DNA of 64,000 bases. Source: Blasia pusilla (lineage: Eukaryota). The notes beneath the pieces are model-generated. The model did no database searches. It was given only the letters and a program-made list of their open reading frames with translations, and was not told where the DNA came from. Every line of letters begins with the position of its first letter. The stretch's first letter is position 1. The position numbers and the translations under genes are program-made. Of the stretch, positions 1-38,906 are shown piece after piece. Location: positions 30,690,001 to 30,754,000 of the forward strand of contig CM114271.1 of assembly GCA_050084515.1 (NCBI GenBank), in the 5' to 3' direction.

Positions 1-2116
1 ACCGTGTTCTTCAACGTGCTAAGAGGTATCGATTGGAGGGAACACATATTCTCCGTGTGTGGGAGGATGGTAGAGTACGAGTAGTGCCACATTTGGCTTA
101 GAGAGAGCGCATTGTGGGACATGCCCATGAGGAGTTGGGACATTTTGGGGTAAAGCGTATGTTTAGCTTACTCCTTGGTCAGTATTGGTGGCGTGGCATG
201 TATACTCAGGTACAGCAGTTGGTGTCATATTGTATGGTTTGTGACTGGGTGAGGGCATCATTCAATGCCCCTACACCATAGTTACACCCCTTGCCTATCA
301 TGGGGTTGGGTTACTATTGGAGTGTGGACTTTGCGGAACCTTTACCGTTGACTGTACGACATCATCAATATGTGTTGGTGATGGTGGAGCACTTCTCCAA
401 GTGGATTGAGTTGGTGACATTACTTGACAAGGCAAGTGAGGGAAAGGCATATGCGTTTCTTGATAGAGTGCTTAGTCATTTTTGTGCACTAGCTGAAGTG
501 CTGACCGACCAGGGTACAGAGTTTCAGGGTGAGTTTCAGGTCTTGTGTGACAAGGCGTTGATTGATCATCGGACCACGTCTCGAGATCATCCAGAGGTGG
601 ATGGTTTGGCTGAGCGTGTGGTTTAGACGATGAAGAGGGCATTGCGCAAGTATGGCCTCTGAAGGGCATCTTGGCGATAGGATATTCAGTTGCCATGGTT
701 AGCCATGGGGTATAGGTTCAGTCGCCAAGCATCCTTGGCTTCCTTCTCACCTTATTTTCTGTTATACAGCCGAGATCCAGACTTGCCAGCATAAATTTGT
801 CAGGAGTCTAGTGAGGTGGTGAACCTTGATGACCCAAAGATGTGGATGAGAGTGTGTTCTCAGCGGGCAGAGCTCTTTCGGAGAGTTATGCCAATAGCCT
901 TTGAGAATCTTGCCATTGCTCAACACAGGGATACGTTGCGGTATGCAACCATTCGGGGTGGAGGTTATTGACCATCAATTTGTAGGTTCCATGTGGGGGA
1001 CTATGTCTATTTGCAGCAGATTGCACCGACAACGTTGGATGTGACGGCAGGCCGCACTATTTTACGAGTGCGCGAGGTGTTAGCTTCTGGAGTTGTCATG
1101 TTGGAGGGTCGTGATGGAGTTGTTTGGAAGGACCATGTGCATAATTGTGCGCCATGTTATCTTCCAAATGTGGATGGTACTGTTGACCCAAGCTTAGCCA
1201 TGATACGTGCTAGCTTGAGGTGCATGTTGTGTGGGTCTGCTGGTAACGCAGCCTGTATGTTGGTGTGTGATTGGTGTTCTAGGGATTGGCACATGATGTG
1301 TTTGACTCCACGTATGGATGTTGTTCCTACTGGAAGGTGGGTTTGTCCTCGATGTACTTAGAAGAGGTAGATGACTTGATCTTTGCATGATATGGATTAC
1401 AGATGTGCGACGAACGATGGGGCAATCTAGTACCCGGCCTTCTGATTCGTGCACCCACGAAGGTGTATAGCATGTAGTAGATGTATAGGGCTACTTGGGA
1501 GTTAGAGGGACCTAACCGCCAGTTATGGGGGCGAGTTGTGGTACAGTTGTGTTTGTGTATGCTCTCGTCTATGTTATGTATGTATGTGAGTATGGTATGT
1601 CAGCGATGTATGTTGTATGACGATGTGGATTCACACGACAACTGTCATGACCATACATATTATGTCGTAGAGTATAGTGTGCTAGTAGAGGCCATACCTT
1701 ATGTAGAGCGGTAGTGTTTAGGTAGAGATGCAGTTTCATACATAGGGTTGGGGGTTACTCACTTGAGGGTGACTTTTTCAGTAGGGCCCGCTCTTAGGTT
1801 AGAGGATATAGTGTGGAGTGCACTCAAAGAACAGTTAGTTCTTTGAGTTGAGCCTGTTGCGTTGGGAGTTAACCTTGATAGTGAGTAGAGCTCTTGGCTA
1901 TGGTGGTTTCCGCAAGCTTCGACCTGGATTCTCCCATCGTGGAGTGGGTTTGGCTCGATTGTATGTGATTCTATGCGTGTTTTATGACAGTATGTCTTTC
2001 AAAGATTTCAATTGTGGTACACTTATGTTTGTGTATGCTCTCGTCTATGTTATGTATGTATGTGAGTATGGTATGTTAGCGATGTATGTTGTATGACGAT
2101 GTGGATTTGCACAACA
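1..2116 (+). mobile_element. Decayed Ty3/Gypsy LTR retrotransposon copy 1, 3' part: integrase, C-terminal PHD finger, PPT and repeated terminus
   Basis: Integrase Zn-binding region (HEELGHFG...C..C) and core (WSVDFAEPL...VLTDQGTEF...DGLAERVV, ORF 291-626) with stops and frameshifts. PHD finger C4HC3 CMLC...VCDWCSRDWHMMC...WVCPRC in ORF 993-1361. G-rich PPT at ~1525-1535. A ~104-bp repeat occurs at 1537-1640 and 2013-2116. Confidence 0.9.
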
Positions 2117-5780: not shown

Positions 5781-10760
<4,980 letters not shown>

Positions 10761-10769
10761 CTAGTTAAG

Positions 10770-12272
10770 TAGTTACATAGTCCCATGCCTTTTATCAGGG
10801 AGGACTAGGCATGATTTGGGATGAGGAGACCCAATCATTAGAGAAGCCTACTGCTGATGAGCGTGAGAGAGCCATAGGGTTTGCTACGGGTTACTACGAC
10901 GGTACTAGATGTGATGGAGGCATCACGGAGAGAGGTGTTGGGGCAGGTGATGGACCTTAAGTGTCTCACATGGATAGTCAGTCTATATATGGCTTAGCAA
11001 AGTGATATGCGAGTGTCATCCATGCCGTCACGTCCACGAGTTAGGGCACTGCCTATAGGGTCTGTACATGCATTGGCTAGGGTCTATAGAGGAGAGATAG
11101 GCACCCATGGACTTCCTGGCACGTCATTCGAGCAGAGAGTGTGGTGGCGGCCAAAGTAACACATGTTCATTCTTTAGATATGGAGCATGAAGTGGTAGGT
11201 TAGAGTAGGATGATTGTAGCAGAGGTGGCTAGGGTTGCTACATAGCAACCAAAGTTGGAGGTTGCGTCCTCTTTGAGGCGGATGGGTTGGCGGAGAGAGT
11301 AGTACATACAGTGAAGAGAGGGTTATGCAAGTATGGCTTGCAGCGAGGACATTTGAGGAAGTGGGACCTATAGTTGCCATGGTTGGCTGTGGGATATTGC
11401 TTCAGTCGGCAAGCATCCCATGTGTCATTTTCACCATATTTTTTGTTCTATGGGAGAGAGCCAAATTTACCTATAGCTATTCAATATGACATGGCGGAGG
11501 TCTCAGATCTTGATGACATAGATTTTTGGGTACAACCATGTTCTAAGAGGGCGGAGATTTTTAGTAGAGTTATGCCCACAACATTTGAGAACTTAGCTAT
11601 TTCCTTGCATAGGGATACATTGAGGTATGTGAGCATTCATTGAGGAGGTTATTGTTCAGGGATTAGGAGGTTTCATCCTAGAGATTATGTGTATTTACAG
11701 TAGGCGGCACCCACAACATTAGGTGTCATCACATGGCGCACAATTTTGCGTATTTATGAGGTGATACCGACCGGAGTCCTCATATTGGAGGGATGAGATG
11801 GTGTGGTTTGGAGGGATCATGTGGAAAATTTTGCGCCATGCTATCTCCGGAATGTGGATGGGATAGTGGATGCGAGCTTGGCAGTGATACCTGCAATCTT
11901 GAGGTGTATGTTCTGTGGATCTACGATAGGTGCTGCCACCATGTTGGTGTGTGATGGTTGTTATTGAGGGTGGCATATGTCGTGTCTAACACCCCCTCTA
12001 GATGCACTTCCCACAAGATAATGGTTATGTCCTAGATGTGTAAGGGGTAGTAGATCATGTCAGGTAGATATGATGTGTGCTATTTAGAGTTAGGGGGACC
12101 CAATTGCTAGCTAGGGGGACGGTTTTGTATTCTTGGTGTACATGCATAAGTTCATGTTTTTTATGTGTGTGGATCTACCGGCCCATATGTTGGGAAGCTC
12201 GGTGTTGAGTGGCGTGGATCTGACCAATGATGAGTATTGTATACTAGTATAGAGATGTGTATGCGCATGACA
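10770..12272 (+). mobile_element. Decayed Gypsy copy 3: C5-methyltransferase C-terminal fragment, integrase C-terminal half, PHD finger, PPT and terminal repeat
   Basis: 10781-10995 translates (one frameshift) to SHAFYQGGLGMIWDEETQSLEKPTADERERAIGFATG/TTTVLDVMEASRREVLGQVMDLKCLTWIV. 11280-12040 is colinear with copy 1 (DGLAERVV..., PWLAVGY..., PHD CMFC...VCDGC...WHMSC...WLCPRC). PPT at ~12113-12123; ends GCGCATGACA at 12272. Confidence 0.85.
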
Positions 12273-14819: not shown

Positions 14820-15090
14820 ACATTGATTGCAAGAGGTGGGATTCACACTTATAGTTGATGATGGAAGAAAGGGAAAGGGCAAGGGCAAGGGCAAGTGGGG
14901 TAATAAGGGGGGAGGGAGTAGAGGTGGAGGGAGGAAGAAACGTGAGAGTATGGAACACAAAGGAAAGTGGAGGGAACGAAAAAGAATGGGAAGGTAGGAC
15001 CCACATGGACAAGTCCTTCCATAAGATGGATGTAAGTCCACAGACATGGACATGTCCATGGATATAGACCTTTTCCACATACAACCTTGA
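14820..15090 (+). repeat. Dispersed purine-rich repeat unit of unknown class
   Basis: gattgcaagaggtggga..cacacttatag...gtaagtccac.gacatggacatgtcc recurs at ~56058-56532, continuing at 57332-57415. Confidence 0.7.
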
Positions 15091-16887
15091 GGCTCACGAT
15101 ACAACATGTCATGATGTCTCCACATATCGATTTTTTGGATAACCATGAAGAGATCTTTCGTTTGGTTAGTCGAAGAGGTAGATTCTATGGTCTACGACAT
15201 GTCTTATTGGATTCCAGAGCGAAACCCCTGATGTTGGAGAGAGCGAGATTTAAAAGTTTGGGCCTCACTTGGGCTTATATTCAATGTTGTCTATTCAAGA
15301 TATAAGAATTGGGGGGAAAATCCATACTTAATTTATTTTTTTAAATTGCTATGTGGGAGCCCTTAACTTGAATGTTTGAAATCTAAATGTGAAGGTTTAT
15401 GTTAGATGCAATATCACCAATATCCATGTGGAAGGGATTTCATATTCCACTAGGATTCCCATGGACTAGAAATCAAACTCAACTCTCTTCATAAAAAGAT
15501 TGGGACAAGAATTTCTTGCCATAGAATCTATATAATAGGCTTCTCATATCATCTTAGATTGTGGCATGTGCAAACACGTCATCTAAATCAACTTAAGGCA
15601 TTTTTTGATTTATCAAGCTAAAAGTTATTTCATAGTACTATGAGGGTTACCTTGAGCTTAGGTATACTAGGTCAATTCACGAGCCCTTAGATTCTTATCT
15701 ACATGAACATATATAATCTAACCTATATTAGTGTATATATCATAAGGATGCCTTTATGGTGAACAAGCTTTGAATCTACAAAATAGCACAAATAAAATTT
15801 TAAAGATTGGGAACTTTTTTATAGTCACATGTTCGTATGAGGAGAAAAACATGCAAGATGCTATATGATATTTCCTTATGGAGACATATTTTACTTTTTT
15901 TTGACAAATCTATCCCAAAAAATAGTTCACACTTTCTCTAATTGTAATATAGATTACATTCATCCATGAATAAAAGTTGAAGGCAAGAGAGATAGTCAAA
16001 CCTAGAGGCTCAACTACTATAAAGCTACGTGATCCACTCACAAAACAATTACACCATCCCCATCACTCTTATAAAGAAATCAAAACTTCTATTATCTATT
16101 CAAAATTTACATTGTACAAGTTGCATACTTGTGCTCCATGTCAAAAAAGTAATTTCATCCCACTATCCTAATTTTTTATTTGTATTTTCCCTATCTCCTA
16201 GTTCTAAATCTATTTCCCAGTCTATTATTCAAATCCAAACTTTAAACCTCGACGTAAAGGGAATTGCTAAGAGAGAAATCATGCATCCTTAAATATTACT
16301 AGTGGATATATGTGAGATGCACGTGTTAACTAATGATGGATGATTTAATTTACCCATCATTATTGCAATCCCATACTTGTTCGAGCCCTACCGCATATTT
16401 GAAATATCCTCAAAGTCAACCCTAACTTGACTAATCTCTAAAGTGGACCATGTATCCTGAAAGCGACCCCAAATTAAAGACCTATATCAAGACATGATCG
16501 GTTGAAATTGTAAGATGTCAATAGGAAAAATATTCGAAAATGGAAGGGCACTCGAAACTAATAATACAGATTAATTTGTCTTGTGATATGGATTCATTAT
16601 AATATACATTACTTAACATGCCCGTGCTACACACGAAAAGAAGGTTTTTAAGAAAATATTAGAAATAAAAATCATATTCCGATTATCACTATTGACTTTA
16701 AAGAGTAGTGGTTATGTGGAGATTCTTCTTAAACATCCACTCCTCCCATCCATTAATTCTCCTCTTCTCAATAATATCACTACTTCCTCTAATAATACCA
16801 CGTCTCTTCCCCAAAGGTTTCACTTCCTTCACCCCTACTAAAATCAATATTCATGGAAAAAATTAATGCCATGTTGCTATTTTATCT

Positions 16888-18801: not shown

Positions 18802-19788
18802 TCAAGATGCGGCGTCTACTCGATCGCCTGCCTCTTCCTCCTGGGATGGAGCATGCTGCAAGCTCAAACCGACCAAGGCAGACGCCACCTGGTCGATGTT
18901 GGGTCGACTGTAGAGATCCAAGCTGCAACACTGAGCGGCAATCTGCAACATCGATTTCATCAGCTCTAGGCCTCCGGCAGCTTTTCCCGGCTGAATGAGG
19001 TTTTCCGCTTTCCCCGTCCTGAGGCGATCAAGGACAAGGTTCACGAGCAACGTGACGGGCCGCTTGATATCCCAGGCAGTCAAGAAAGTCGCCAACTCCA
19101 TGAGGAGCACTCCAAAGCTGTAGATGTCTGATTTATCGTCCAAGTGACATGTCTGCTCGTAGACGGGACACTTGTAACCAAATGCGCCCAGGGGTACCGG
19201 GGTGTACGAATCGGACTCGGTCTTCACAACCACGGCAATCCCCAGATCTGCAAGCTTCGCACGGTGGTTTTCGTCCAGAAGAACGTTGGAGGATTTGACA
19301 TCTCTGTGGAAGATGGGAAATCGGGCGTTGTAGTGGAGCTCACAGAGTGCGTTCGCCACGTCTATGGCCACCGATAATCTGTTGAACGCGTTGTTGTGGA
19401 GGTGGTTGCCTTTTCTTCCTTGAATATGCTGCCTCAAACTGCCTTTGGCCATGAATTCATAGACAATGAGGGGATCTTTGGGATCGAAGGAGACACCCAG
19501 GAGATGGCGGACGTGTGGGTGCGTTCTTAAGGAGAGGAGACGCTGGACTTTCATTTCTGCGACAATTCCCGCCTGTGGATCAGCAATGTTGGGCTTGAAT
19601 CGCTTAACGGCGACAGAGCTTCCGTCGAGCAAGCGACCATGGTACACTCTTCCATTTTGCCCTTCCCCCACACAATTCTTTAGTCCGAAGTTGCCCGTTG
19701 CTCTTTGGAGTACCCTGAACGTGAACCAGTCGATAGGGTCATCCTGCTGCACACCTCCTCTCTTCACAGGAGCCACCATCCTTGGCAT
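18802..19788 (-). CDS. RLK/Pelle-family cytoplasmic Ser/Thr kinase (WAK/LRK10L-like kinase domain, no ectodomain or TM in this exon); may have upstream exons
   Basis: Uninterrupted ORF from ATG 19788: FTFRVLQRATGNF, GEGQNGRVY, VAVK, LIVYEFM, HRDVKSSNVLL, DLG, GAFGYKCPVY, KSDIYSFGVLLMEL, RP. Confidence 0.9.
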   Translation of the reverse strand: MPRMVAPVKRGGVQQDDPIDWFTFRVLQRATGNFGLKNCVGEGQNGRVYHGRLLDGSSVAVKRFKPNIADPQAGIVAEMKVQRLLSLRTHPHVRHLLGVSFDPKDPLIVYEFMAKGSLRQHIQGRKGNHLHNNAFNRLSVAIDVANALCELHYNARFPIFHRDVKSSNVLLDENHRAKLADLGIAVVVKTESDSYTPVPLGAFGYKCPVYEQTCHLDDKSDIYSFGVLLMELATFLTAWDIKRPVTLLVNLVLDRLRTGKAENLIQPGKAAGGLELMKSMLQIAAQCCSLDLYSRPNIDQVASALVGLSLQHAPSQEEEAGDRVDAAS

Positions 19789-20280
19789 TATTGCGGTACG
19801 CGCACTGAACTCAACGGCGCACCACAAATGATCAAAATATGCCCTCCAGTCGCTTGGTACCCGTGTGATTCTCGATCATCAATTAGCTAACCGGGGAATA
19901 AAATGTCTACCCTAGCATTGACTTCTCTTTTGCTTGTCCACACTAACAAGCGGACTGACTTACTGGATAAATCTGCTGCCTTCAGCACTTCGATCCTCCT
20001 CAATCCACCATCGGCGAGCATCAACAGTTTCACGAAAGACGCCTGCGGTGGCATACATCGCAAAGTTGAAGATAAGGTCATTAGGTCATTCCTAGCACCT
20101 ACAGCGTGTGTCCTTCAGCGTTTGTGTCGGCATTGACAGAGTGGTGTGCGAAGTAACCGTTTCGCACGAACGCAGGGCGATCAAAGCTTTGGGCTCCATC
20201 CGCTCCGAATCAAATAGCTGGCAAATTATAGGTGTGTTTCTACTTCAGTGACAAAGCTGCTGTGGCTTTCTCTCATGCTC

Positions 20281-25460: not shown

Positions 25461-28400
25461 TTTCGTGCGCCTGCTCTCCTCGAACATCAATCTCACTGTT
25501 GCGGAAGCATACGTTTAGTAGGACACGCTCTCATCGCCAACTTGCATCCAAACGCACTCAAGTTAGTCTAGGTTTGGGTCAAGCAGCCTTCCATCCCACC
25601 GAGTCCTCGCCTTGGCACCTCATCAAGCTCAACCTTCCCTCATTCCTAGGTTCCCAACACGGGCAAGTCTTCCGAGACTTGGGACAGACTTTTTGGTTAG
25701 TCCAGGCACCTAAAATGGCATTTGCACGCCTAGCGGTCCCAACTATCTAACAGAACTCGCATGAGTCCCCAACCAAGCCTCAAAAATATGAGTCGCGAGT
25801 TGGAATCCAATAGGGACCTCCAAAATCCACTCTATTGGACTTGGTTTGGGTTTCTCGAATCCCAACGCCAAACTCCTGATCCGTTCCGTGCCCTTGGGTC
25901 GCCCCGCGGCGCCCAAAGTGGGATTTGAGTCCCAAGCACCCTTGGAGACCTTCCCCTTTACTAGTACTTCTGGGGATCTCGGGGGTCCCCATACCTTTGG
26001 GAAAGAGCACCCGGGCCCCTCTTTCTGGCCCTTTCTGGCCCTCAACCTGACTCCCCATACAGTTTCTTTTGGCTCATATTTTGTCTTTTTCTTAAGCGTT
26101 TGCCAAAAGCTTTGTTGCGTAGGAACCAACTCTATCTAAGCTTTCCAACGCTTTCTTATTTTCTCCAAAAGCATCTTGGGACTAAAAGTTATGGTCAAAA
26201 GTACAGTCAAAAAATCCAAACGCTAGCCGCGTCCCAAGTCTTGTTCTCATCCCTTGGCCACGTCTCCGTCCGAGACTCGACTTTTCTTATGTCTAGGTTT
26301 TGCGTTTGGTTCCGGTCTCTCAATCGCAACCACAAACCCATGAAACACTTGGAACGCTCGTTGCGCCTGCGTCTCGCACTAATGTTTCTCTAACTCCAAA
26401 GCGCAAACCATCCTAGCGTGAGCTCGCTAGAGATTTGATGTTCCGCTTGGTGCTTGTTTGGTCATGAGGGTCGCGACACTCACCTCTCTTTAGAGGTTGA
26501 TGCCCTCATCAATGCAAACCTTTTGACTGTCAAGTCGTATTGGGAAAGCGGACCCCTTGACATCGAATTGCGTTCTGGTAGCTAACCAGAAATTCCTCTT
26601 TTGGCTTAAATCTTAGGTTGTCGCTTGCAACACTTAGCATCATTTAGCATCTCCTCTTCGATGAGCCTAGACCAATTCTCAACCAATCTAACCTATCATA
26701 TACGCTAACTAAGGTTGCTACCTAAAACTTCTCTCGCTCATAACTTGCAAACATCTCACTTGTTTACACGGTACATGATTTGTACTACTTTTGGGTTGCT
26801 CTCCTATTCGACTTAGGAACATCACTAAGTTCACTCATGCACTCACAAGTAAGATCACTCCAAGTCCCAAGATAGAGTGATCTGCCCCGTCGATGCTAGG
26901 GTGAGCCCAAGTGTAAGGTACCCAACACTTGGTCCTGTTCTAGGTACTTATCCAAATACAAGCTCTCGCCTCAAATACTCCTTGTCTATCCTCTTGATTT
27001 ACATCCTAAGCATATGAGGAACCACTCATTTCCATGCACTACCAAGACCAATTGCAAATAACACAAGCATCAAATCTCCAAATTCATGCGTTCCTTTATT
27101 GCAACACTAGCCTGCTCTAGTTACAACAGCGTTTGGCCCAAGCTTCCTATTGTCACAAGTCATGTCCCTTGCTACTCTGTGTACTAACGCATGTGCTTCC
27201 CTTACAACCGTTTGAAGTCTTGCAACACCTCTTGCGCGTGTTCCAGGTTTGCCTCCGCAATCCAAGTCACCTCTTTCACATGGCAGCCCTTCCACTTGAC
27301 AAAGTTCACATACTTGTTGGCCCTATGCCTCAAACGCAAGAGGGTCTCCACCTCGAACTCCAGTTCTTTGCTCGCGATTACCGACTACGGTCTCAACGCA
27401 CGTCTTTGCTCGGGATCCTCATTATCCTGAAGATACTTCTTCAACAATACCACATGGAAAGTGGGATGTATCTTGAACTCTTCTGGAAATTCGAATGTAT
27501 ACACGTCCTCAAACGGGTTTGCCTTAATCACATATGGTCCAACATACTTGGCAAATAGCTTCGCGGACAACTCCTTCGGAAAAGTGAGATTCTTCACACT
27601 CAACCACACTTGTTCCCCAACTCGGAATCTCACTTGGCGCTTGCTCTTGTTAGCATGCTTCACGTACCTCAGTTCAGCCCTTTCAAAGTTTCTCCTGGCT
27701 CGCTCCTACCGATCTCGCATCTCCGCTAACAAACCTTCTGCCGTCGCTTGTTGGGTTTGTAACGGTGTAGTACCCTTTGAAAGGACCAGGTCAAGAGGCC
27801 CTTTTGGCTCACGTCCTTAAGCCAAGAGAAACGGAGATTCTCCAATGCTTGGTGGAGTTGTAGCAGAACTCCGCCATACTTAGCCACTTTGCCCAATCTC
27901 ACTGGTCTGCGCTCATGTAATTCCTTAAGTACTGGTTCACGAGGGAGTTTACCTTTTCTGTTTGCCCATCCATCTACGTATGGAAGGCCACGCTAAAACT
28001 CATCTTGGTCTTGAACCTCCAAAAACAGTATTTCCAAAAGGCACTAGTAAAATTTGGATCTTGATCTGAAACAATACTCCTTGGCAACCCGTGCGCATGC
28101 CACCAACTATCTGGAAGAGTCGAGAAGTTGTATAGGCCGTCGCTGAATCCACCGTCGGCACGAATCTCCCCAACTTACTAAACCGATCAAAAATCACAAG
28201 TATAGCATTGTATCCCTCATACTCTGGAAGTCCATACTCACACTCTACAAGGGTCGATCCGGAATCGGCAAAGGATGCAACAAGCCTTGTTTCTTCGCAT
28301 AAGAAACTTTGTTCACCTGACAGTTCACAGAGGTCTTCACATATTGAGCAACATCCTCTTTCATGTTGGGCCAGAAGAACCTCTTAGCCAGAACATCCAA

Positions 28401-33161: not shown

Positions 33162-36100
33162 TGTTGAGAGTATTAGTGTCAGTGCCCATTTTGACGGACA
33201 AATGTAGATTGCCACATGTGTACTTACTATCTTAAGAAAGAGGAAGTGGAATAAGGAAGCATGCTCATTCCCCCCTTTGAGTAGGAAAACTAGGATTCTA
33301 AATCTTCTCTAAAAGAGGTGCTAGTTTGTGGCTTAGCAAGTCATTAGGAGAAGCTACTATATGAGACATGTTGGAGAGGAGCTTACAACGACGGTAGAAG
33401 GAGCTTCAAGACTTTTGAGTTTGCAACTCTCAATCTTGCATGTTGTCTTTTCCATTATGGTATCAGAGAGAGTTTTTGCTTAAATCCAATTATTCCGTCT
33501 TGTGTTGTTCATATCTTTTCCATGCATCTATAGAGAGGAGAGTTTCTAGAATTCATTATTCCCCAATAGTCAATACGCAGTATTGTAGTAGTAGTTCTTG
33601 ATTGATCTTTATTGTGGGCATGGCCTCGTCGTCTAGAAGGGACCAACATATTGATCGGTTGGATGACAAAAACTATGGCACATGGGCTTTTGTCATGGAG
33701 TATCTCTTGAGACTGCGGAATCTCTTTAAGCACATTGAGAATCCAGATGGTGGGGAAGATTTGAACGATGAAGCTCGTAAGAAGTGGGACTTTGAGGAGA
33801 TGGAGGCATGTTCGCATATCGTGCTTAACATCAAGGCATCACAGCATATACACATCAAGAAGTGCAAGTCGGCATTTGAGATGTGGTCTTAGCTTGAGGA
33901 TAAACACCGCAAGAAAGGTGTTGCTTCCCAAATCTACTTGAGGCGCAAATTATATGGGCTTCGGTATGTAGATGGATCTTCCATGAATGATTTCTTGCGA
34001 GAAATTTTTGAGTTATGTGATGAGCTTGTTGAGTCTGGAGGAGAGGTGAGTGATACGGAAATGCCTTTCATCGTCCTCTCTGCATTACCAGATTCATGGG
34101 AATCATTGATCTAAGCTCTTGGATCAACAAATAAGGAGGATATTACCGAGGACTTTGTAAAGTCCATCCTTTTGCAAGAGGAGGAACGAAGGAAGGAGAA
34201 AGTTACATCTTCTTCTGAAGCAACTCTCGCCATTCAATCTAAGGGGAAAGTTGTCTCAAAATCTGAAAATAAAGAGAAAGGCAAGATCGAAAAATCAAAG
34301 AGTACTTGTAGAGCATGCGGAGAGAAGGGTCATTGGAAGGGTGATAAGGAATGTTTGAAGGCAAAAGATGGGCATACGATAGCAACTACAAGCGTGGTGG
34401 TTGTACTCGAAACCCATGAGGTCCTTTCATCAAATTCACTTACTCTACATCATTCTGTCTGTGTTGATAGTGCTGCAGATGTACGTATTCAACAAGATCG
34501 GTCAAAGATCCTTAACTTTGATAAGGATGCCTTTGTGCATCTACAAGGATACAATGGTATAGGAGGACGATCACGTGGTTCTGGAGAGATGCACATTGTT
34601 GTGCATAATCTAAAGGGAGAACAAGTTAAAGTCATCATAAAAAATGTCCATTGAGTTCCTGAGGCACGAGAAACCTTATTGTCCGCAACTACTCTATGAG
34701 GCGTGGTTGTCGGTTTAACTTAGATGGGAAGGGCGTAGAGTGAATTCTTCCAACCGGGGAAATTTTGTCCCATGGCAAGTTGGAAGGCAAGGCATATCTC
34801 ATTCCATGTGAGGTTGAGGAGGAACATCGAAACCTTATTGCAAGTGTTTCTATGGGCCAAACTTTGCAAGACTGGCACCATACACTCGCGCATGCATCTG
34901 TAAAGAAAATTTGAGAAGCAGACGATCTGGAGTTGTGGAGGGACTCCATAATAAGGGAGACAAGAAATTCATTCCAAGATGTGAGTCATGCATTGTTGGG
35001 AAGGCTCACTGTTTATCTTTCCCAAACACACACAAGCATGCCAAATCAATTTTGGAAGTTGTCATCTCTGATCTTGGCTTTTCTGATACACCGAGTATTA
35101 GCGGAGCTCGATGGCTTGCAGTTTGGATCGATGAGTTTTCTTGATATGTTGGCTTGGCTTTCTTACAAAGGAAAGATCAAACTCATGCCGCTTACAAGAT
35201 GTGGGAGGCAGAAGCACAGCGTTGAACAGGTAAGAAGGTTAAGACCTTCCACACAGATCAAGGATCTTAATTCCTCAACAAGGAGCTTGGCTCACATTTC
35301 AAGGTTGAAGGTGTGCACCACATGACTATCCCTTCATATACGCATGAGATTTTTGGCATGGTGGAGCGGATGATGCGCACCATATTTGAAGGAGTTCGCA
35401 CACTCCTTGAAGATGCAAAGCTTGATCGTAGATATTGGGCTTATGCGGCAAAGCATGTAGTGTGGACGCGGAACCGGCTACCACATCTACAGTTGGAAGA
35501 TAAGACTCCCTATATGGTGTTTTATGGTGTGAAACCTAATCTAGATTTTGCCCGCCCATTCAGATGCTATGTATGGTACCATATTCTGAAGGAGAAACGA
35601 AAAAAGCTCGATGCAAAGGCAAAGAAGGGTATCTTTGTTGGCTACTCCAAAACCTCCAAAGCGTATGAAGTTTTTCTCCTTGATAGCCTAAATGTGGTTC
35701 TTAGTAGGGATGTAATCTTCATGGAGGAAAAGAAATGGGACAATGTGGCAGTTCCACTTGTCACGCCTTCCAGCAGCAAGCCACCAAAGCTAGAGAGAAG
35801 AGCCAAGTGAAGGCATTGTCATCCCAACTATAAATGTTGAAAAGCAAGAGCATGGATCACATGCAAGCACAGGTCCTTAGGAGGATATCCATGCAACACC
35901 TCAACCGGAATATAACGTTGCTGATGCGCATCCGATTTTGGATCATGAGGGCAAGCTTGATCAAGAAGTACCTTTGCCACGTCCATCTCAACGCCAAAGA
36001 GGTGGAATTGGAAGAAGTCATCCCCTTCCTTCCATGGAGCACGACATTGGCGTGGGCCCCTAACGATGTTGTTAGGGGCCCACGCCACGAGCCTTCTCAC

Positions 36101-37847: not shown

Positions 37848-37943
37848 CTCCCTTACTTCTGCAAGGAAGCGATCGGTTCTTGAGATCTGATTTTGTACAC
37901 CTGAGGCTCGAGATCGAAAAAAGTGACCAGAGTCGGTCGCATC

Positions 37944-38906
37944 ATGGGGAAGATTGAGATGGCGTCGAAGATGGGGGTTTGGACCATATGCTTGCTCGCT
38001 GTTGTGGGGATGACCTCAGCCCGTAACATGCACAGTCCATCGCAGTACTGCTCTTCCGAAAGAGAGTTCGCAAAGTGCGGGAACTTCGTGAGAACGGACT
38101 CCAACTCGACACGGGATTCTTGTCCGAAGTTCAACTCCCCGTGTTGCAAATTCGTGAGAAAGGAGCCTCTGGAGTGCTTCTGCAGTGCTGCGAACCATTT
38201 GACGTTCAAGTCCTTCACTGTGAACATCACCAAGGCCCTGGCATTGCCTCACAAGTGCAATAAGGTCAACAGCAAGGGCATCGGGTTGGAGTGCGAAGGT
38301 GAGGACCGACAGTTCTCCTCTATCAAATCGTTCCATAACTTCACTCTGGTTCCCTTCTTTGTGCATATGTTGACAGCAATTTATAAGTCTCGAAGCTGTA
38401 ATTTATGTATTGAATCGAGTCAGTTCCATTTCATTCACTCTTCAACTCAGAATCTGAGTCTTCCGAGAATCTGAAGCGTACATCATCTGTAACTTATCTC
38501 TGCTCTTGGTGTATGTACATTTGCAGCCCGGGCACCGCCTCCACCACCAGCGTACATTTCCGAGTCTCCACCTCCGCCTTCTCCCCTAGGCTCCCCACCT
38601 CCTTCCCCACTAAGCTCCCCACCTCCTTCCCCACTAAGCTCCCCACCTCCTTCCCCCCTAAGCTCCCCACCTCCTCCACCTCTAATCTTTCGCTCTCCAC
38701 CTCCTCCTCTCTTTACATCTCCACCTCCTCCACCTCTAATCTTTCGCTCTCCACCTCTAATCTTTCGCTCTCCACCTCCTCCTCTCTTTACATCTCCACC
38801 TCCTCCACCTCTAATCTTTCGCTCTCCACCTCCTCCTCTCTTTACATCTCCACCTCCTCCTCCTTCTCCTATAAGTCCTCCACCGATGGAGGGAGAAATG
38901 GAGTGA
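37944..38906 (+). CDS. Secreted nsLTP/8-Cys-motif protein fused to a C-terminal Ser-Pro3-5 extensin-like tail; join(37944..38298,38527..38906)
   Basis: Signal-peptide-like N-terminus (MGVWTICLLAVVGMTSA) and Cys pattern C-C-(C)-CC-CxC-C-C. GT-AG phase-1 intron 4 nt after the last Cys codon. Exon 2 in frame gives ARAPPPPP...(SPPPSPLS)n(SPPPPPLIFRSPPPPLFT)n...MEGEME*, with TGA at 38904-38906. Confidence 0.85.

Follow-up and report, generated by a model that had tools for sequence, protein, structure and literature searches.

Is a short, broken reading frame in the genome of Blasia pusilla what remains of a retrotransposon that encoded its own DNA methyltransferase? The question is raised by a segment of the window, the window being the whole stretch of 64,000 nucleotides that was analysed (contig CM114271.1 of assembly GCA_050084515.1, positions 30,690,001 to 30,754,000 of the forward strand). 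A transposable element with its own de novo DNA methyltransferase inverts the usual view of methylation as a weapon that the host turns against transposons. Precedents exist, and an earlier note on this DNA had named them correctly: the text of de Mendoza et al. (2018, Nat Commun 9:1341, PMC5890265) describes KnitGypsy-Dnmt3 of the charophyte Klebsormidium nitens, acquired 'in the K. nitens lineage', and, in dinoflagellates, SymbioDIRS-Dnmt3, which occurs in two structures with differing domain orders within Pol. The analysis reported here indicates that window positions 10781-11152 are very probably a dead pol relic of a bryophyte Ty3/gypsy family with a DNMT3-like cytosine-5 DNA methyltransferase (DNMT) of its own. 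The relic would comprise the last ~70 residues of the domain and the linker that leads to the reverse transcriptase (RT), and it adjoins the final third of an integrase together with a PHD finger.

The relic and its decay

Translation of the plus strand yields SHAFYQGGLGMIWDEETQSLEKPTADERERAIGFATGY from 10781-10894 and, in the next frame from 10890/10896, (V)TTTVLDVMEASRREVLGQVMDLKCLTWIVSLYMA up to a TAG at 10995-10997; the remaining frames across the relic are closed. The frameshift that had been placed at about 10891 is thus present, at 10892-10895. The two frames joined with an X at the break make up the 71-residue peptide P0003. The stop codon had been taken as the end of the relic. Homology to the family nevertheless passes through it as far as about 11078. 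A second frameshift follows between about 11078 and 11102, beyond which the match continues in another frame to at least 11152 (residues 352-368 of P0007 correspond to 11102-11152) before it fades by about 11152-11210. Some 70 residues of the domain do survive, as had been proposed, but they are followed by about 70 decayed linker residues that also belong to the relic. All features are collected in Table 1.

Table 1. Relic, family fragments and other features of the 64-kb window
Feature	Position	Strand	Remarks
Copy 1, integrase-PHD	3-1358	+	PHD 972-1358 matches PF00628, E 1.3e-7
Segment similar to the post-PHD region 12029-12194	3010-2853	-	
Gag(CCHC)-protease-linker fragment	5727-3228	-	Corresponds to P0030 residues 1-717; ends ~80 residues before methyltransferase motif I
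(GA)n/(TC)n microsatellite	6919-7160		~240 bp
AT-rich unrelated DNA	10500..10780	.	GC about 0.30; stands in for the upstream ~250 methyltransferase codons; 5' truncation point
Relic, first frame	10781..10894	+	Block S(H/Y)AF..GG.G..WD..EP.A and motif IX ERERAIGF (10859-10882)
1-nt frameshift splitting the relic peptide	10892..10895	+	Alignment to P0041 ungapped after X read-through
Relic, second frame SRREVLGQVMDLKCLTWIVSL	10896..10994	+	Holds motif X-like LGQVMD (10938-10955)
TAG stop, in frame	10995..10997	+	Relatives have E/A there (..SLGMAEQRR..)
Decayed post-methyltransferase linker of family polyproteins	10998..11152	+	tblastn: P0036 to 11078, P0049 to 11081, P0007 to 11152
Copy 3, integrase-PHD	11275..12054	+	P0020 residues 824-1081; integrase from EADGLAER (DDE glutamate) and degenerate PHD
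Copy 2, integrase-PHD	13752-13000 and 12950-12783	-	Tail-to-tail with copy 3
Isolated family protease-region fragment	15045-15368	+	P0035 272-362, 36% identity
Protein-kinase ORF	18805-19875	-	357 aa
Tf2-1-like SH3 piece	27388-27705	-	
Copia-type gag and SH3_retrovirus pieces	33602-35807	+	
Lipid-transfer-protein-like ORF	37905-38471	+	

The 5' end of the relic is equally sharp. Homology begins abruptly at about 10781, where the GC content steps from 0.31 to 0.50. Upstream of this position on the plus strand no match was obtained in tblastn searches with family polyproteins, and a repeat search around the break returned short, unconvincing repeats and no recognisable inserted element. Being truncated at ~10781, the window copy lacks motifs I (F.G.G, SAM binding), IV (catalytic Cys) and VI (ENV). 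The motifs IX and X that are left, ERERAIGF and LGQVMD, align to columns conserved in 30/30 family domains. No sequencing runs containing 10600-12100 were matched, RNA runs included. The window copy is dead, and it is unable to make an enzyme because of the 5' truncation, the two frameshifts and the in-frame stop.

The same lesions bear on the idea that a functional or domesticated short ORF is expressed here, for example a DNMT3L-like regulatory remnant. Marchantia annotations do hold gene models on such pieces (P0011 and P0007, discussed below), yet what is left at this locus is confined to motifs IX-X and is interrupted three times, and the family fragments in the window are old, as they are only 68-75% identical to each other. 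Domestication is therefore very improbable, and the locus itself has no function.

Identity of the peptide

Taken by itself, the peptide is silent in profile searches. Neither of the relic halves nor P0003 matched any Pfam family at E<=10, the cytosine methylase family PF00145 included, or any PDB sequence at the same threshold; the 59-aa relic ORF retrieved nothing from 5.8 billion proteins in a word-based search, and a second copy of the segment was found in the 64-kb window at neither the DNA nor the protein level. The earlier note had looked to PF00145 and the frameshift-corrected peptide for confirmation. Since the peptide fails this profile, the assignment rests on the intact relatives, 17/25 of which pass it.

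Missing Pfam and PDB matches and the missing second copy speak for a chance resemblance, that is, for decayed non-coding or unrelated coding DNA that happens to read ER..GF...LG. This explanation is refuted by the comparison of P0003 with residues 295-364 of P0041, in which 44/70 residues (63%) are identical over an ungapped alignment with a BLASTP E-value of 2e-31, a match beyond chance. Other family members agree. The methyltransferase C-terminal segment of six family polyproteins lands on window 10781-11078 in tblastn searches (for example P0036 563-661, E 6e-22), residues 299-356 of P0011 on 10781-10954 (E 1.7e-8) and residues 293-368 of P0007 on 10926-11152. Additional members bring the number of consistent matches to over 30, the distant ones being ~40-50% identical, and the homology carries on into the family-specific linker. 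The probability left to coincidence is negligible.

Across the first frame of the relic, identity to the corresponding segment of P0035, P0036, P0031, P0042, P0058, P0049 and P0037 amounts to 51-66%, and when the C-terminal segment is aligned over 36 rows, no family-wide conserved position is lost in the window. From the P0041 match, the tblastn results and this alignment it follows that the peptide represents the motif IX-X end of the family domain. Its identification as the end of a putative DNMT3-like C5-methyltransferase domain, from a bryophyte Ty3/gypsy family with an integrase-PHD, is thus supported at the level of sequence comparison.

A DNMT3-like domain in the family

What kind of methyltransferase the family encodes was deduced from the relatives. 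Residues 60-352 of P0011 as query retrieved 38 proteins, 25 of which were scanned against Pfam; PF00145 (C-5 cytosine DNA methylase) was recorded above the 22-bit cut-off in 17/25, below it in 2/25 and not at all in 6/25. Five members (P0031, P0035, P0036, P0041 and P0042) display six motifs with constant spacing and in the unpermuted order I to X, namely DLFGGISTG (I), GWPCQ (IV), ILENV (VI), RAHRPR (VIII), ERERAMGF (IX) and LGQAMD (X). Across 30 family domains, motif I, the catalytic Cys, the Glu-Asn of motif VI and the motif X pattern G..(M/I)D are each present in 30/30; a stricter regular expression applied to the same domains finds PC in 16/30 and EN[VI] in 15/30. In motif IV, 18/30 family domains have Glu (ECQ), Asp or Ser in place of the proline before the invariant Cys.

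Searched against PDB with phmmer, P0041 matched DNMT3A best (E 6e-12), followed by DNMT3B (1.4e-9) and DNMT3C (6e-9), and then by tobacco DRM (1e-8), AtDRM2 (1.6e-4), M.HaeIII (3.5e-4), M.HhaI and DNMT2. DNMT1 was absent from these matches at E<=1. A profile of 21 relatives gave the same ranking as P0041 alone. HMMER aligns P0041 320-353 (DERERAMGFATGVTAVPSISEASRRQVLGQAMDL) to DNMT3A 235-268, in the very register that had been drawn by eye for motifs IX-X; this stretch scores 3.4-4.0 bits alone and is collinear with the strong N-terminal match (E 6e-12). When an AlphaFold model of P0041 was submitted to Foldseek, the top matches were all DNMT3A/B/C, with a best E-value of 2e-8. The model has a mean pLDDT of 53, with values of mostly ~70-84 in the N-terminal half and <60 in the TRD and the C-terminus. 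The fold match is carried by the N-terminal half because the C-terminal third is poorly modelled (below 50 to 60), too weakly to display the motif IX-X fold. A search of the ESM Atlas returned generic DNA_methylase clusters only. The top matches in phmmer, profile and Foldseek searches, together with the unpermuted motif order, place the domain among the predicted DNMT3-like enzymes.

The relic could then also be a piece of a host gene (DNMT3 or DRM) with a retrotransposon as its chance neighbour. It is indeed isolated, and the adjacent retroelement sequence begins about 120-280 bp downstream. Yet its closest counterparts, at the 51-66% identity given above, are domains borne by polyproteins, and the family domain is only ~20% identical to DNMT3A in Foldseek alignments; DNMT3A reaches E 6e-12 in the phmmer search, against <=1e-44 for the best 150 family representatives. 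The sequence after motif X is moreover the polyprotein linker (AEQRRLR...HPWSTW) and no gene terminus, and in relatives gag, protease (PR) and RT share an ORF with the domain. A host origin is accordingly given very little credence, and the derivation from a retroelement polyprotein is preferred.

Architecture, size and spread of the family

The element behind these domains was pieced together from both of its ends. The PHD-bearing ORF of copy 1 as query retrieved 26 proteins from species including Marchantia polymorpha, Calypogeia fissa and Sphagnum fallax, among them RT-RNaseH-integrase-PHD polyproteins of ~1080 aa. The bryophyte members P0030, P0031, P0035, P0055 and P0053 cover the other part, with a gag with CCHC, a protease (..LLDSGAQPLMLGK.., which we take to be of the D-S-G type), the methyltransferase, RVT_1 and RNase H. 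In P0055 Pfam places the DNMT before RVT_1 and RNase H (RH), and its C-terminus overlaps, with near identity, the beginning of P0008, an integrase-PHD protein. From this overlap the element is reconstructed as gag(CCHC)-PR(DSG)-DNMT-RT-RH-IN-PHD, IN being the integrase. A land-plant Gypsy pol that joins a DNA-methylation writer to a PHD finger, as the earlier note had suggested, is therefore borne out by this bryophyte family. The Ty3/gypsy domain order and Pfam families (Integrase_H2C2, rve) are present in the relatives, and in P0055, P0053 and P0080 the DNMT lies in one ORF with gypsy-type RT and RNase H/integrase domains.

An exhaustive phmmer search with P0041 of 1.84 billion representatives unveiled a much larger group, with 4268 relatives at E<=1e-3, 965 at <=1e-10 and 269 at <=1e-30, many of which have a length of 1000-3400 aa and align along the entire domain. 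Twenty-five long distant polyproteins were scanned against Pfam, the position of the DNMT being taken from the P0041 phmmer search. The DNMT follows RH in 20/25, and 18 of those 20 continue into Integrase_H2C2/rve; it precedes RT in 2/25 (P0080, with the order CCHC, DNMT, RT, RH, IN, and P0090) and is the only domain recognised in 3/25. DNMT and PHD finger occur together in 13/25. A chlorophyte sister form is found in a 'pol' of Scenedesmus sp. PABB004 (KAF8056149.1).

The DNMT3-like module hence occupies two positions in pol, either PR-DNMT-RT in a bryophyte-type branch (P0055, P0080, P0090) or RH-DNMT-IN in an algal-type branch (P0073, P0093, P0117 etc.). In P0083, the PHD finger of the integrase is followed by a PTM/DIR17-like Tudor domain, forming a PHD-Tudor reader pair.

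A maximum-likelihood tree of 30 DNMT domains, built by a quick search and midpoint-rooted without outgroup, separates two groups with an SH-aLRT of 99. One holds the 5 bryophyte-type rows, P0080, P0090 and three rows of unknown order, and the other the 20 RH-DNMT rows. Such a picture might reflect an ancient, green-lineage-wide gypsy clade, represented in chlorophytes, in bryophytes and among numerous environmental contigs, whose members carry both a DNMT3-like writer and a PHD reader on the integrase, and in which the module has moved within pol, the two orders lying on opposite sides of one split in the DNMT tree. This broader reading is put forward tentatively, with the balance of probability tilted slightly against it. 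If it were true, the Klebsormidium case would be one tip of the clade and no lineage-specific acquisition, and the family would have entered land plants vertically and been active in liverworts and mosses.

Neighbouring fragments and Marchantia gene models

Family homology resumes downstream of the relic at 11272-11275, at about integrase residue 824 of P0020, so that about 60-120 bp of unassignable sequence separate the relic from the integrase-PHD of copy 3. Absent between the two are RT, RNase H and the N-terminal part of the integrase. Relic and copy 3 may be parts of one insertion that has lost the ~820 residues which separate the DNMT linker from integrase residue ~824. The relic had been described as lying just upstream of copy 3 on the same strand. 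This proximity is real, but the adjacency is secondary, for the two pieces would not adjoin if RT, RNase H and the greater part of the integrase were still present. Writer and reader thus stand close together here as an artefact of deletion, even though both belong to the family polyprotein. Flanking LTRs of the window copy were not identified, the repeats in the window being only the 68-75% identical fragments.

Further pieces of the family and of other elements are scattered over the window (Table 1). Copy 2 carries an internal deletion of ~175 residues, which extends from integrase residue ~839 to the PHD finger. The Pfam scan of window ORFs covers the first 147 of 213, up to about 40 kb; the 213 consist of 211 ORFs of >=70 aa and two shorter PHD ORFs.

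Pieces of the same kind have entered the gene annotation of Marchantia. The Marchantia gene models P0011, P0007 and P0030 are chimeras made up of decayed pieces of the element. P0011 (Mp_7g09570) contains ..SHAYRDGGPRLLWDSTLHQLVEPNADERERAMRF.. and, further upstream, DLFGGISTGLAAV; in it, DNMT motif IX is directly joined to the end of the integrase core and the PHD. In P0007 (MARPO_0060s0038) an integrase-PHD runs into scraps of the DNMT region. That P0011 and the window copy are one shared deletion derivative was considered and found unsupported, as the integrase of P0011 starts ~18 residues earlier (..VLCDKTLNDHRTTSRDHP|EADG) and that of the window from EADGLAER. Splicing in the gene model may be all that lies behind P0011. 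Marchantia also has members on record whose DNMT domain is complete and free of stops, for example P0031 (MARPO_0008s0049).

Possible role of the methyltransferase

For intact members of the family, a mode of action can be sketched from the domain order. The DNMT domain would be made within Gag-Pol and released by the protease, and the freed enzyme would methylate cytosines de novo. Its most plausible target would be the newly made or newly integrated cDNA of the element itself, in analogy to the cDNA methylation that de Mendoza et al. (2018, PMC5890265) propose as the role of DIRS-Dnmt3. The PHD finger of the integrase could tether integration to the state of histone tails.

The window documents that elements of the Gypsy-DNMT3 kind left relics in a land-plant genome. 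The family to which the relic belongs amounts to hundreds of clusters at 50% identity; its catalytic residues are conserved, and its integrase bears a finger of the histone-reader type. As Marchantia is genetically tractable and holds complete DNMT domains, the use of its own DNMT by a transposon becomes testable.

Comparison with known systems

As far as can be told from searches of full texts, Gypsy-DNMT3 elements in print are those of Klebsormidium only, cited as 'streptophytes (Gypsy-DNMT3)'. In the passages concerned, a 2025 article (Mol Biol Evol, msaf176) and a 2026 preprint refer to TE-borne DNMT3 in 'streptophytes' as something already reported. Openly searchable main texts yielded no account of Gypsy-DNMT3 elements in bryophytes or with a PHD link, and the words 'Marchantia', 'Physcomitrella' and 'PHD' have 0 occurrences in the main text of de Mendoza et al. 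(PMC5890265). Compared by its published description, KnitGypsy-Dnmt3 resembles the present family in carrying an unpermuted DNMT3-related domain with conserved key catalytic residues in a streptophyte Gypsy Pol. In contrast to it, the present family occurs in land plants (Marchantia, Calypogeia, Sphagnum), with a sister form in the chlorophyte Scenedesmus, and has a PHD finger at the end of its integrase, whereas that paper does not use the term PHD in its main text.

SymbioDIRS-Dnmt3 of Symbiodinium, as described there, is likewise a retroelement-borne DNMT3, and its two coexisting Pol orders parallel the two orders of the family. It differs in belonging to another eukaryotic lineage and in the use of a tyrosine recombinase, not a DDE integrase, by DIRS elements.

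Among host enzymes, the DRM proteins (NtDRM, 4onj; AtDRM2, 7l4c) are plant DNMT3-derived de novo methyltransferases and provide the second-best PDB matches of the family domain. Their E-values are weaker than those of DNMT3A/B, and motifs I-VI of the family (query 44-170) match the C-terminal part of DRM, residues 225-350 of about 357, whereas the family motifs run from I to X. The C-terminal position of this match fits the motif rearrangement of DRM as it is described by de Mendoza et al. (2018, PMC5890265).

DNMT3A, 3B and 3C (PDB 6w89, 5yx2, 2qrv, 6u8p, 8tci) are the best matches of the family domain in both sequence and fold. They share with it the order I, IV, VI, VIII, IX, X and the C-terminal signature ER..GF....T....R..LG. 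Unlike them, the family domain, at ~20% identity, lies inside a retroelement polyprotein without an adjacent PWWP or ADD; its TRD is longer and poorly modelled, and its motif IV is often ECQ, not PCQ/PCN, in the algal-type subfamily.

Chromoviruses are Ty3/gypsy elements whose integrase carries a C-terminal chromodomain. As in the present family, a histone-reader module is fused to the C-terminus of a gypsy integrase, but in the present family the reader is a PHD finger and the element encodes a DNA methyltransferase as well. The relic in Blasia pusilla therefore belongs to a known kind of element, which is extended here by its presence in land plants, by the link to a PHD finger and by a second domain order, that is, a second position of the DNMT in pol.
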